DNA from: Candidatus Heimdallarchaeota archaeon
GTDB lineage: Archaea > Asgardarchaeota > Heimdallarchaeia > Heimdallarchaeales > Heimdallarchaeaceae
Assembly: GCA_021399395.1 (NCBI GenBank)
Contig: JAAFKJ010000122.1
Span: 1 to 16,675, forward strand
DNA: 16,675 bases
Direction of reading: 5' to 3'
Both the position numbers and the translations under genes were made by a program. How positions within the stretch are numbered: position 1 is the stretch's first letter; every line of letters begins with the position of its first letter. Below are positions 13,610 through 16,675 of the stretch, one piece after another. The notes beneath the pieces were generated by a model. It saw only the letters and a list, made by a program, of their open reading frames with translations. It had not been told where the DNA came from and made no database searches.

Positions 13610-15073
13610 TTATTGCAAGCCTAAGAAGCCTGCTAGTGCAGGTACTGTTTCACTTACTTGCTCACTTGCAAATATCTCATAGTACTGTCTTAGAATTCCA
13701 GTAGTAAGAAGTATACCCGTACCCGTACCTAATGCTCCTAAGAAATCCGCAACTGCTGCTAGGACTCCTATAAAGAAACCTCCAAGCCATGCTGCTGTTG
13801 GAATATATCTTTCTAGATACCTTTCAACTATACGTGGATTCCTTCTGAAACCTGGTATTTGCATGTTGGCATCTAAGAGTTGCTTTGCAACATTTTTTGA
13901 GCTCATACCTGCCGTATCTATCCAGATCCGCGAGAATATACCACATAATGCTATCATTAGGAATAGATAGATGATTGCATTAACCGGATGCTGCGCCACT
14001 TGCTCCGGACCATACGGTGCCGTCGTCCATGATGCTAAACCGCTCGTAGGTGCCAGCTGTTCTTGCTGGCCCGTATCCGCAACATTTTCCCATCGACCGA
14101 AGAAGTTCACAAAGAAGTACTTGAACCCTGATTCTTCTTTTTCCCAGTTCGTAAACATTAGATTTGACACGAAATAAATATTAGCAAATAAAGCACTAAC
14201 TAAGATAACTGGAATATTTGATGTATATAGAAACTTGATTGGATATCTAGCTGGCATTTTGTATTGACTGTGTTGAACTGGAATTTCTATTTTAACAGAA
14301 TCAACGTAGATAACAATAGCAAAAACAACTATCGTAGCTAGTAATCCTATAAGATCGGGATTTCGCCCCACTCTACTAAAAGCATCCGCCACTTCCTGAC
14401 CCGGATTATCGCCGAACAATCCTTGGAAGAAAGCGATAACACAACCTCTGGATTGAGTATCCGTGTAATCTTTAAGACTAAACATACCATCAAAGATGTT
14501 GAATGATACACTTGCGGCGATAAAGAGACTTATACCACTCCCCATTCCGTATCCCTTCTGGATTACTTCATCCATTAGTAATATGATGAATCCCGCAACA
14601 AGGAGTTGCACGAGAATGAGCATAATATTTTGTATACCTAACTCCTCTCTTGCTCCGTAGGCTCCTCCAAGAATATATGCCAGAGCTTCGAAGATTGTCA
14701 TTAATACAGCTAGTATTTTTTGAGTTCCTGTATATAATGCTCTCTCTTCAGAATTTGTGAAATCTACTTTAATAATCTGTGATCCCACTAATAATTGCAT
14801 TATCAAACCTGCTGTTACTATAGGTCCTATTCCTAGTTCAGCTAAGGTTCCCCTTTGAGATGCTAATATCGCTCTCATGGCAAAAAATGGGTCTTTATTG
14901 TCTTCCCCTGCAGGAATACCTACAATAGGGATGTTGAGCATGGTCAAATATATTGCAAGAATTCCAAAAGTCCAAGCTATCTTCTTCTTGAAAGAAGGTT
15001 TCCTTGCAGGTTTCTTCACTTCAAAGATGAATCGTTGAAACGGTTTGAATAGTAGTAAGAATTTTGACGCCAT
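13610..15073 (-). CDS. secY: Protein translocase subunit SecY / Sec61-alpha
   Basis: GTLAELGIGPIVTAGLIMQLL, GSGISLFIA, YPIKFLYTSNIPVIL, IPGFRR and GTGTGILL motifs; about 10 hydrophobic segments. Confidence 0.98.
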   Translation of the reverse strand: MASKFLLLFKPFQRFIFEVKKPARKPSFKKKIAWTFGILAIYLTMLNIPIVGIPAGEDNKDPFFAMRAILASQRGTLAELGIGPIVTAGLIMQLLVGSQIIKVDFTNSEERALYTGTQKILAVLMTIFEALAYILGGAYGAREELGIQNIMLILVQLLVAGFIILLMDEVIQKGYGMGSGISLFIAASVSFNIFDGMFSLKDYTDTQSRGCVIAFFQGLFGDNPGQEVADAFSRVGRNPDLIGLLATIVVFAIVIYVDSVKIEIPVQHSQYKMPARYPIKFLYTSNIPVILVSALFANIYFVSNLMFTNWEKEESGFKYFFVNFFGRWENVADTGQQEQLAPTSGLASWTTAPYGPEQVAQHPVNAIIYLFLMIALCGIFSRIWIDTAGMSSKNVAKQLLDANMQIPGFRRNPRIVERYLERYIPTAAWLGGFFIGVLAAVADFLGALGTGTGILLTTGILRQYYEIFASEQVSETVPALAGFLGLQ

Positions 15074-15113
15074 TGAAACACCGGTTCGAATTCATTCTCA
15101 ATGAAGTTCTTCT

Positions 15114-15131
15114 ATTTATAAGCATTTTTCT
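15114..15131 (-). promoter_or_regulatory. Putative own promoter of secY
   Basis: Minus strand reads AGAAAAATGC-TTATAAAT, about 45 nt upstream of the ATG; GGTG SD at 15079-15082. Confidence 0.55.
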
Positions 15132-15240
15132 GTATGTTACAAACAGAGAAATTTTCTTTTTCTTGTCTAAAAGAAGAAATAGCACATCATGGTAATATTT
15201 TTAATATTATCAATTTACAAAGTGTATTGTTCAAAATGCA

Positions 15241-15325
15241 GCCAGGATACTCAAGCCTGGTATGAGGCTAGATTGGAAATCTAGTGTCGATAGACTCCGG
15301 GGTTCAAATCCCCGTCCTGGCTCCA
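15241..15325 (+). tRNA. tRNA-Ser(GGA), intronless, CCA encoded
   Basis: Acceptor GCCAGGA/TCCTGGC; D arm CTCA..TGAG; anticodon arm CTAGA-TTGGAAA-TCTAG (GGA at 15275-15277); variable arm GTC-GATA-GAC; T arm CGGGG-TTCAAAT-CCCCG; then T-CCA. Confidence 0.95.
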
Positions 15326-15357
15326 TCCATTCTTGATACTCTAGAGTTTTTGTCTTT

Positions 15358-15378
15358 GAAGCAAATGTTTAAAAAAAT
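15358..15378 (+). promoter_or_regulatory. Putative promoter of the rps13-rps4 (alpha) operon
   Basis: GCAAATG-TTTAAAAA (TATA at 15368-15375) predicts a start near 15398, just 5' of the structured region. Confidence 0.5.
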
Positions 15379-15406
15379 CTTCTACGCTCTCAAACTGAAG
15401 TCATTT

Positions 15407-15505
15407 GTGCTATTATCTAGTTGGTAAGCACTGGGCGAAGCTCTAAGGGGAACTCCCCACTCTGATATACTTCAGAGGTAAGAGCACCACAACTCCGGGT
15501 TGTGG
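15407..15505 (+). ncRNA. Candidate structured 5' leader upstream of rps13 (hairpin, three-way junction, hairpin)
   Basis: GTGCT 15407-11/AGCAC 15427-31; GCTCT 15440-44/AGAGC 15481-85 enclosing GGGG-AACT-CCCC 15447-58 and CTCTGA-TATACT-TCAGAG 15460-77; CCACAAC-TCCGG-GTTGTGG 15487-15505. A GC-rich island in AT-rich intergenic DNA. Confidence 0.68.
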
Positions 15506-15528
15506 AATAAAACAAACAAAGTGATAAC

Positions 15529-15972
15529 ATGTCATTTCGCCATTTAGTTAGAATAAAGTCTACTGATCTCGAAGGATATCTTCCAGTTACTCTAGGGCTA
15601 TCAAAAATCACTGGAGTAAATAGAAGATTGGCTGAAGCTATTGTAAGAACTCTAAAAATACCTCTATCTGAGCGTATAGGTTATCTTACAGATTCGACAA
15701 TAAAAGAAATAGAGGGTATTATTAGTGACCCCACTTCAGCTGGTATTCCTAAGTGGTTGGTAAATAGAAGGAAAGATCGTCAAACAGGTGATGATCTGCA
15801 CATTACAGAAGCACAACTTATCTTGCAGACTAAGCAAGATGTTGAAAGATACATACGCATTCGCAGTCGTAGAGGAATTAGACACTCGTTCAAACTTAAA
15901 GTTAGAGGGCAAAGAACTCGAACCCATGGTAAAGGGGGTTCCACAGTAGGAGTCTCTAAGAAGAAAAGGTGA
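15529..15972 (+). CDS. rps13: 30S ribosomal protein uS13
   Basis: FRHLVRI..TDL.G, IPKWLVNRRKD..TG.D.H, RGIRH...LKVRGQRTRT motifs. Confidence 0.98.
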   Translation: MSFRHLVRIKSTDLEGYLPVTLGLSKITGVNRRLAEAIVRTLKIPLSERIGYLTDSTIKEIEGIISDPTSAGIPKWLVNRRKDRQTGDDLHITEAQLILQTKQDVERYIRIRSRRGIRHSFKLKVRGQRTRTHGKGGSTVGVSKKKR

Positions 15973-15977
15973 TATAA

Positions 15978-16675
15978 ATGGGTGGAATAAGAAGACAAAG
16001 AAAGAAAATTATAACTCCTGGACATCCTTACGATAAAGTTCGTATTGAACAGGAATTACCTTTAGTTGGAGAATATGGTTTACGTAACAAAAAAGAACTG
16101 TGGAAAGCAAGAACCGTGCTATCTAAAGCTAGACAACAAGCCAGAGCTTTACTCGCACTTCCTATAGAAGTAAGAGCACAACGAGAAAAAGAACTTCTAT
16201 CTCGTTTAGCTAATCTTGGTGTGCTCTCCTCAGGTAGCGACCTTGACTCTGTTTTGGCATTAGATGTTCGTACAGTCTTGAATAGGCGCTTACAAACAAT
16301 AGTGTTCAAAAAAGGACTTGCAAGCTCACCATATCAAGCAAGACAATTTATTGCACACAGACATATTGCTATTGAAAGAGCTGTTGCTACTTCTCCAGGA
16401 CGTCTTATCAAGATAAACGAAGAGGAAAATATCGATTATGCTCCTCAATCTCCATTGCTTGAGAAATCGCATCCTGCTAGAACTCAAGCTCCTCCAACAA
16501 GTGAAGAACCTCCTGAGAAGAGAGAATCTCCAAAAGCTAGACAAAAACCTCAAGACAAACCTGTCCCTAAGAGGGAAGACAAACCTGTCCCTAAGAGGGA
16601 AGACAAACCTGTCCCTAAGAGGGAAGACAAACCTGTCCCCAAGAGGGAAGACAAACCTGTCCCTAAGAGGGAAGA
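15978..16675 (+). CDS. rps4: 30S ribosomal protein uS4, 3'-partial, with a long Pro/charged repeat tail (not in the ORF track)
   Basis: Translated by hand: MGGIRRQRKKIITPGHPYDK...EYGLRNKKELWK...RRLQTIVFKKGLASSPYQARQFIAHRHI...HPAR, then TQAPPTSEEPPEKRESPKARQKPQ(DKPVPKRE)x5. No stop before the window end; SD AGGTGA. Confidence 0.97.
   Translation, partial: MGGIRRQRKKIITPGHPYDKVRIEQELPLVGEYGLRNKKELWKARTVLSKARQQARALLALPIEVRAQREKELLSRLANLGVLSSGSDLDSVLALDVRTVLNRRLQTIVFKKGLASSPYQARQFIAHRHIAIERAVATSPGRLIKINEEENIDYAPQSPLLEKSHPARTQAPPTSEEPPEKRESPKARQKPQDKPVPKREDKPVPKREDKPVPKREDKPVPKREDKPVPKRE
16552..16675 (+). repeat. 24-bp tandem repeat AAGACAAACCTGTCCCTAAGAGGG, at least 5 copies, encoding (DKPVPKRE)n
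   Basis: Copies start at 16552, 16576, 16600, 16624 (one synonymous T>C at 16640) and 16648; a partial sixth runs off the end. Confidence 0.97.

Follow-up and report, generated by a model that had tools for sequence, protein, structure and literature searches.

A conserved structured RNA upstream of rps13 in one family of Heimdallarchaeia, probably a 5' leader of the rps13-rps4-rps11 mRNA

The stretch of DNA analyzed here (hereafter the window) is a whole contig of 16,675 nucleotides (nt) from a Candidatus Heimdallarchaeota archaeon of the family Heimdallarchaeaceae (assembly GCA_021399395.1, contig JAAFKJ010000122.1; 2.8 Mb, 34% GC, 201 contigs). Near its 3' end, a transfer RNA (tRNA) gene is followed, after a spacer of 203 nt, by rps13 and rps4, encoding the ribosomal proteins uS13 and uS4. 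The spacer contains a structured RNA element that is conserved in related genomes and covaries more than expected by chance. We consider it fairly probable, on the sequence evidence given below, that this element is a structured 5' leader of about 132 nt on the rps13-rps4-rps11 mRNA and acts as a translational operator. The features of the locus, in window coordinates, are as follows.

13610-15073, minus strand: secY.
15241-15325, plus strand: tRNA-Ser(GGA), found by ARAGORN and by the Rfam tRNA model (55.2 bits); a separate upstream gene, given for context only.
15347-15351, plus strand: run of five T after the tRNA gene; TTTTTGTCTTT is kept in many genomes of the host genus (g1).
15358-15378, plus strand: box resembling a B recognition element (BRE) and TATA box, GAAGCAAAtgTTTAAAAAAAT; invariant, and the best conserved stretch of the spacer among 23 aligned g1 loci.
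15397 (+/- 3 nt), plus strand: predicted transcription start, placed about 27-30 nt past the start of the TATA box from the position of that box.
15400-15406, plus strand: GUCAUUU, 5' strand of an optional helix, P0, with the Shine-Dalgarno (SD) tract AAGUGAU; present in the minimum free energy (MFE) structure of the 5' untranslated region (UTR) alone.
15407-15431, plus strand: hairpin H1 (15407-15411 with 15427-15431), from fold and covariation.
15434-15439, plus strand: GGCGAA, 5' strand of LR, a proposed helix between the leader and the open reading frame (ORF) of rps13; it runs directly into P2, with no unpaired base between.
15440-15485, plus strand: P2 domain, made of P2 (15440-44 with 15481-85), P2a (15447-50 with 15455-58) and P2b (15460-65 with 15472-77), with linkers AA, A and GUA.
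15487-15505, plus strand: hairpin H3, CCACAAC/GUUGUGG (15487-93 with 15499-15505), 7 base pairs (bp), joined to P2 by a single purine at 15486.
15506-15520, plus strand: A-rich unstructured linker, 14-28 nt long and 52-88% A across 30 sequences.
15521-15525, plus strand: SD sequence GUGAU, four bases before the ATG; all g1 sequences keep GUGA.
15529-15551, plus strand: invariant first bases of rps13 (codons 1-7 plus two), with the 3' strands of two proposed helices, the SD hairpin (15531-15535) and LR (15536-15541).
15536-15541, plus strand: UUCGCC, 3' strand of LR, in rps13 codons 3-5; exact complement of GGCGAA.
15529-15972, plus strand: rps13 (uS13), first gene of the operon; its ORF has orthologs 47-93% identical.
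15978-16675, plus strand: rps4 (uS4), with the Pfam domains S4 and Ribosomal_S4; truncated by the contig end.

Structure and distribution of the element

Folding of 15398-15528 with RNAfold gives an MFE of -43.3 kcal/mol, against a mean of -28.9 kcal/mol (standard deviation 3.4) for dinucleotide shuffles (z = -4.25), and none of 200 shuffles folds as well. A preliminary description of this DNA, made from the letters alone, had pointed to a GC-rich island of five helices at this place, and RNAfold recovers every one of them at the same positions.

Covariation among relatives bears the structure out. Thirty leaders were aligned twice, once fitted to a covariance model (alignment A3) and once with MAFFT, without fitting to structure (A4), and standard pairs occupy 94.9-95.1% of the pair cells in the two alignments. 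In A4, 95.1% of cells are paired versus 90.1% after column shuffling and 11 pairs show double-sided changes versus 4.4, with 0 of 500 shuffles as high; the observed values of A3 are likewise reached by none of 500 column shuffles. When the registers of A4 are slid, pairing falls to 29-46%. Hairpin H3 is the richest in double-sided changes (seven of eight pairs in A3, with 99.2% of cells paired, and seven of seven in A4, with 99%), and loci from metagenomes add the variants CUGCAAC/GUUGCAG and CUACAAC/GUUGUAG. H1 shows them at four of six pairs in A3 and three of five in A4, as in the change from GUGC/GCAC to GUAU/AUAC. The base of P2, GCUC/GAGC, is identical in all 30 sequences, save one U at one position in one of them. 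The three-way junction at 15440-15485, as first described, is present, but its distal part varies: 25 of the 30 leaders have the junction and five a plain hairpin in its place, so that arms P2a and P2b are dispensable. What stays constant is the core ..CG(A/G)A-GCUC..GAGC-R-H3. Since G.U pairs occur on the plus strand, the strand of the RNA is fixed as well. This is a conserved and covarying structured RNA, beyond chance expectation.

A DNA search of 41 relatives recovered the stretch from tRNA through spacer to rps13 in 23 further g1 genomes, at 69-86% identity. The covariance model R1, built from the 24 g1 sequences, has a single match in the host genome (127.5 bits, E = 6e-23; the next has E = 2.3), hence the leader is not a repeat. 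Over the order (47 genomes), R1 finds the element in 23 of 24 g1 genomes and in both genomes of a second genus (g10). At genome scale it missed three other genera of the family (g11, g12 and g13), where we spotted diverged versions by eye in the regions upstream of rps13. These share the TATA box, CG(A/G)AGCUC, GAGC followed by a purine, a hairpin of 6-7 bp with another sequence, and the SD; R1 with its filters off scores them at 22-35 bits.

A second model, R2, built with the diverged g11-g13 leaders included, finds one copy in 29 of the 30 other genomes of the family, across five genera and always before rps13, and no copy in 52 genomes from six other families of the class. The sole miss within the family, genome G013, has no rps13 match either. 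As R2 was built from those sequences, its matches within the family hold by construction; the informative results are the 52 misses elsewhere and 11 matches in metagenomes. Among 80 metagenome loci encoding relatives of uS13, 62 were scanned with R2, and 11 matched at 64-137 bits, none of which had been used to build the model. Among the scanned loci, these 11 and no others have a full-length or N-terminal uS13 match at least 58% identical to the family; the remaining 51 are unmatched by R2. On L140, the only other locus at that identity, the gene is reduced to its C-terminal part (query residues 53-152, beginning at locus position 11), and the leader region falls off the locus. No such element was seen by eye at four rps13 loci from two sister families. 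A dispersed repeat or miniature inverted-repeat transposable element unrelated to ribosomal protein genes, for which the preliminary description had allowed, is rejected: each of 30 genomes has one copy, and that copy is always tied to rps13.

The element as probable 5' untranslated region of rps13

Conservation in the spacer alignment peaks at TTTGAAGCAAAT..TTTAAAAAAAT (15354-15378), lapses over some 18 bases (15379-15396) and returns at GAAGUCA. The part TTTAAAAAA of the box at 15358-15378 is found in g10-g13 too. By the archaeal TATA consensus and the usual distance from TATA box to start, this box would be the promoter of the leader. Upstream of it, the T run at 15347-15351 is likely to terminate the tRNA transcript. 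RNA contigs from three metatranscriptome runs of one study, compared with 15000-16675, gave two short matches, both inside rps13 only (15778-15987 and 15784-15970).

Between H3 and the SD, the longest T run is of two or fewer in all 30 sequences, and we found no terminator-like site before the rps13 ATG. H3 itself fills about -25 to -45 of rps13, which leaves no room for a second TATA box. With neither a terminator nor space for another promoter, the structured RNA is read as the 5' UTR of rps13. It was described at first as followed by an unstructured A/C tract and a weak SD (AGTGA). The A/C-rich tract (15506-15520), AGUGAU (15520-15525) and the ATG at 15529 stand, but the SD is a genuine one, since GUGAU is complementary to AUCAC in the 3' end of 16S ribosomal RNA (rRNA), GGAUCACCUCCU, of three congeners. 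In these three 16S sequences (L031, L032 and L033), roughly the last 100 nt are not alike: insertions tens of bases long stand just ahead of the GGAUCACCUCCU terminus. No upstream ORF or leader peptide is apparent, as the leader lacks an ATG and its sole GTG frame is four codons long and not conserved.

Genus g13 departs from the others at the start codon. In its loci L063, L064 and L095, the ATG in the aligned position of the usual start codon opens another reading frame, which stops after seven codons; the uS13 frame can start there only at a GTG within the SD-like GGTGAT or at an ATT four bases later, and the three independent records agree.

The order of the operon in relatives is rps13-rps4-rps11; in genome G001, Pfam identifies S4 and then S11. 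The tRNA gene is not a fixed neighbor: in g11 and g13 there is no tRNA-Ser within 420 nt upstream of rps13, and the leader is still there. In two congener loci (L011 and L016), the tRNA-Ser(GGA) gene carries inserts of about 30 nt on the T-arm side and about 18 nt on the anticodon side, which are probably introns.

The proteins of the operon have peculiarities of their own. In g1, uS4 is 317-368 residues long. Its S4 domain is normal; behind it come tandem repeats rich in Lys and Pro, and a helix-hairpin-helix domain (Pfam HHH_5, E = 1.4e-15) forms the C-terminus. The uS4 of the window (15978-16673) is truncated by the contig end within the tandem repeats; a full example lies in L093 (5574-6656). 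The tail is absent from uS4 of three other genera of the family (205-235 residues) and of two sister families (189-204 residues). A link between the leader and this tail was rejected, the tail being in g1 (the g10 loci end inside the repeats) and the leader in all five genera. In G001, uS11 (L093, 6668-7339) has an N-terminal extension of about 100 residues, Pfam S11 covering residues 102-220 of 224. Directly 3' of this rps11 lie two ORFs with C2H2 zinc fingers (L093, 7431-7814 and 7814-8986; 128 and 391 residues; Pfam zf-C2H2, E = 2e-21 and 1e-44); in archaea otherwise, rpoD usually comes next after rps11.

Proposed pairing between the leader and the start of rps13

The preliminary description took GGCGAA (15434-15439) for an unpaired linker. 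Most likely it pairs instead with codons 3-5 of rps13. The hexamer is invariant in the 24 g1 sequences, and reads GACGAA in g10, GGCGGA in g11 and g12, and (C)GCGAA in g13. On the other side, rps13 codons 1-7 show one codon type per position in the 24 g1 genomes, save a TCA to TCG change in one of them, while third positions vary from codon 8 on. In the genome, CGC accounts for 639 of 21,472 Arg codons (3%), and TTCGCC occurs within the first 33 nt of only three of 1,995 ORFs.

In the MAFFT alignment, 96.7% of LR cells are paired, and RNAalifold predicts LR unprompted, together with P2 and H3, GGCGAA pairing with columns 183-188. The change to GACGAA in g10 is met by UUCGUC, a compensated G-C to A-U replacement, and GGCGGA in g11 and g12 faces UUCGCC or UUCGUC, giving G.U pairs. 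In g13 the Phe-Arg codons (UUUAGG) are non-complementary, and UUCGC stands directly after the SD instead. The mean pairing probability of LR computed by RNAfold exceeds 0.5 in 26 of 30 sequences, which are all those of the first two genera.

Folded from 15397 to 15560, the window has an MFE of -50.3 kcal/mol, for a structure with H1, LR stacked on P2, H3, and a hairpin between the SD and codons 1-2 (GUGAU:GUCAU). Holding 15519-15541 open raises this to -41.5 kcal/mol, so the closed form is predicted to be 8.8 kcal/mol more stable. Predicted pairing probabilities in this fold are 0.92-0.99 for the SD and 0.48-1.0 for LR. From these models we infer that GGCGAA and UUCGCC form a helix stacked on P2, and that the SD pairs with codons 1-2. 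A mini-hairpin of GCGAAGC was considered and rejected: the G to A change of g10 breaks it, yet the ORF compensates.

Helix P0 would join the predicted 5' end to the SD tract. Its cells are paired at 88%, with one-sided changes only and none double-sided, and over 15397-15560 its fold lies 7 kcal/mol above that with LR; as a helix it is weak, though possible. LR is nested, and a pseudoknot would need P0 and LR together. The heptamer GUCAUUU occurs both at the predicted 5' end (15400-15406) and in codons 1-3 (15531-15537); in a second genus both sites read GUCAAG and the SD region GUGAUUGAU. Complementarity to the SD tract thus seems to be kept at both sites. Its part CAUUU is found three times, at 15402-06, 15533-37 and 15541-45. 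We also observed that positions +14 to +23 of rps13 (CAUUUAGUUAG, window 15542-15551) are invariant in the 24 genomes and lie outside every proposed helix.

Another alternative pairing had been put forward at the outset, in which GUGCU (15407-11) changes partners between two copies of AGCAC (15427-31 and 15483-87) and thereby opens the stem closing the junction. Both copies are indeed in the window, and four core pairs of the alternative helix can form in 20-24 of 29 sequences. However, the swap fares no better than chance: 72.4% of its cells are paired versus 72.0% after shuffling, and 220 of 500 shuffles do as well or better. Its pair G15-C130 is broken in nine of 29 sequences, and the clade in which H1 reads GUAUC/GAUAC kept GAGCAC. 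H1 changes together with its own 3' strand and leaves GAGCAC unaltered, which breaks the alternative helix; we regard such a switch as extremely improbable.

Proposed function of the leader and comparison with known systems

With its SD and AUG predicted to lie in a structure that reaches the coding sequence, the element is likely to be a cis-regulatory leader occluding the initiation region, as the fold models suggest. In the predicted closed form, the SD and AUG would lie inside a four-helix junction formed by LR, P2, H3 and the SD hairpin. A ribosomal protein of the operon present in excess over rRNA could bind the invariant P2/H3/LR junction; binding would stabilize the closed form, or trap the small subunit on the leader, and translation of rps13 and of the genes coupled to it would be repressed. 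H1 and H3 covary freely and P2, the joining purine and GGCGAA are constant, which suggests that a partner reads the junction. By its position and by analogy with known leaders, the partner would be a protein of the operon; we put the chances of feedback by a ribosomal protein at about even. As to which protein, uS4 is favored by its bacterial and yeast precedents, and only as a tentative candidate; it is possible that uS11 or uS13 is the ligand instead. A direct clamp, in which uS4 binds the LR/P2/H3 junction and holds the leader onto rps13 codons 3-5, is conceivable by the same analogy, though doubtful.

Several observations weigh against this interpretation. A highly expressed gene would not be expected to have its initiation region so tightly closed, unless some factor opens it. 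A single pair of LR shows double-sided change, in two sequences that belong to one genus and probably by one event, and the case for the helix rests largely on conservation; the same is true of P2, which has no double-sided changes. In g11-g13 the RNAfold probability of LR is only 0.04-0.12, so that the strands are complementary without the helix being dominant, and the register of g13 differs. When 48 nt of the ORF are included, the MFE of the window picks P0 over LR, which makes the predicted fold dependent on the 3' boundary chosen. The sequences are related, and the shuffle statistics therefore overstate their independence; A3 was moreover fitted to the model, which A4 was not. The RNA contigs (15778-15987) are uninformative on the leader, on its start site and on co-transcription, and the start is placed from the position of the TATA box. 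Finally, the leader shares with the 16S rRNA of a congener just two 7-mers, GGCGAAG and GAGCACC, where chance would give an estimated 3.6 or so, and we found no further resemblance.

The search for rRNA mimicry used the 16S of three congeners, as the host genome has no assembled 16S. The GGCGAAG of 16S is a small hairpin loop near helix 23, in a context unlike that of the leader. Run with filters off on three rRNA loci, R1 finds nothing in 16S itself; all matches listed are weak (up to 19.3 bits) and AT-rich, with a GC content of 0.13-0.40 versus 0.55 for the 16S stretch, and the four shown in full lie outside 16S. A likeness between GAGCA-hairpin-AAUA and 16S around position 1288 holds only in g1 and was dropped. 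By eye, and against the consensus motifs as commonly given, no conserved tandem G.A pairs of a K-turn, loop-E or L7Ae site were seen. A tRNA-like element or pseudo-tRNA was also rejected, ARAGORN and Rfam finding only the tRNA-Ser at 15241-15325.

Could the element work without any protein feedback? A constitutive cis-element might tune translation, shield the 5' end from 5'-to-3' exonucleases, or melt like a thermometer at the SD hairpin and LR. A conserved fold closing the SD and AUG suits it equally well, and dispensable distal arms fit it too, as does the search for rRNA mimicry, which found none. However, all five genera keep the sequence of P2 (GCUC/GAGC), of the joining purine and of GGCGAA next to helices that covary freely, the usual mark of a recognized surface, and the operon is one whose bacterial counterpart is autoregulated; we find this explanation unlikely. 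The same helix could also be controlled by a sensor of the riboswitch kind, responding to a small molecule or to the status of tRNA or rRNA. In its favor are the several helices that meet at a junction whose joining nucleotides are invariant, and the SD, sequestered in what would be an expression platform. Yet no Rfam riboswitch matches at E up to 10, the element occurs once per genome and only before ribosomal protein genes, and its junction arms are variable or deleted, all of which makes such a sensor very improbable.

The preliminary description left the choice between a leader responding to uS4 or uS13 and an independent small RNA. The tie to rps13-rps4(-rps11), the promoter-like box of its own and the lack of a terminator before the ATG mark the element as a leader. 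In the alternative, the promoter would give rise to an independent or processed small RNA, and rps13 would depend on read-through or on a start elsewhere. This reading could also claim that strong promoter-like box, as well as the compact, GC-rich body of H1, P2 and H3 in a genome of 34% GC. It is disfavored, and to our mind quite unlikely, because of the short T runs between H3 and SD and the space that H3 takes from any TATA box of rps13; in addition, the ORF start has its complement in the leader, which always adjoins rps13, even where the tRNA gene is missing.

To our knowledge, cis-regulatory RNAs are very sparsely known in archaea, and a structured 5' UTR of 130 nt stands out against sister families with no such element upstream of rps13. 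If the element is an operator, it provides a defined RNA-protein pair for the balance of ribosome synthesis in the closest archaeal relatives of eukaryotes, and a testable prediction on initiation (use of the SD, unfolding of the start region) in organisms that are not yet genetically tractable. It would also be a case of convergence with the bacterial alpha-operon leader, both pairing a leader with the first uS13 codons and having arisen independently. Should the uS4 clamp be true, this would be the first ribosomal protein operator known in Asgard archaea, and uS4 feedback would be found in Bacteria, in eukaryotes (RPS9) and in their nearest archaeal lineage, with an unrelated RNA in every case. 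The narrow distribution, in one family, and a case resting on computation limit this value.

The leader has no match among the families of Rfam. At gathering thresholds, Rfam 15 finds tRNA only in the whole window, and cmscan of 15200-15700 with E up to 10 returns four matches, all on the tRNA (15241-15355). No archaeal counterpart turned up either, in line with the preliminary description: Rfam holds none for this operon, and among the four candidate archaeal ribosomal protein leaders given in the available text of PMC7247131, none is for rps13, rps4 or rps11 and none is from Asgard archaea, although the supplement of that paper could hold weaker candidates. Literature searches found no ribosomal protein leader from Asgard archaea.

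The closest parallel is the alpha-operon leader of E. coli (RF00140). In the available parts of the sources, S4 is reported to repress the S13-S11-S4 cluster through a leader that extends over the start codon into the rpsM coding sequence, with S4-dependent entrapment of the 30S subunit (PMC3616713), and to recognize a multi-helix junction in rRNA (PMC2665224). Both leaders precede the uS13 gene, both have a structure spanning the start codon and the first coding nucleotides, and the logic of repressing a whole cluster would be common to them. However, the covariance model of RF00140 has no match here at E up to 10, and the predicted architecture, with H1, the P2 junction, H3 and a nested LR, differs from a double pseudoknot. 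The leader is therefore not a member of RF00140, and the relation is one of analogy and not of homology. The promoter is also of the archaeal TATA type, and the gene order is S13-S4-S11.

Other S4 leaders of Bacteria (Clostridia, Fusobacteriales, Bacteroidia, Flavobacteria, Firmicutes), as far as the available text of PMC7247131 describes them, are likewise restricted to lineages, lie before rpsM/rpsD operons and were found by covariation, several without rRNA mimicry, a lack that many ribosomal protein leaders share. None of them matches here, and their GUAA element, which mimics rRNA, is not conserved (GGUAAG in the window, variable in relatives). The archaeal leaders of the same source, S15 (Halobacteria, Methanomicrobia), eL15 (Euryarchaeota) and L4 (Archaeoglobi), are also 5' UTR structures before ribosomal protein genes, supported by the same kind of non-experimental evidence, but they belong to other operons and lineages and have other structures.

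The element shares with ribosomal protein leaders in general a conserved, covarying structure in the 5' UTR and a predicted sequestration of the SD and AUG. Among eukaryotes, yeast uS11 (RPS14) binds the RPS14B pre-mRNA. Yeast RPS9 (uS4) autoregulates through its own pre-mRNA (PMC3315480, available text), so that orthologs of two of the three proteins encoded by this operon feed back on their own transcripts, although in yeast they act on splicing, not on translation, and through unrelated RNA elements. Set beside these systems, the element would be a lineage-specific ribosomal protein leader and, as far as our searches show, the first candidate for this operon in archaea.

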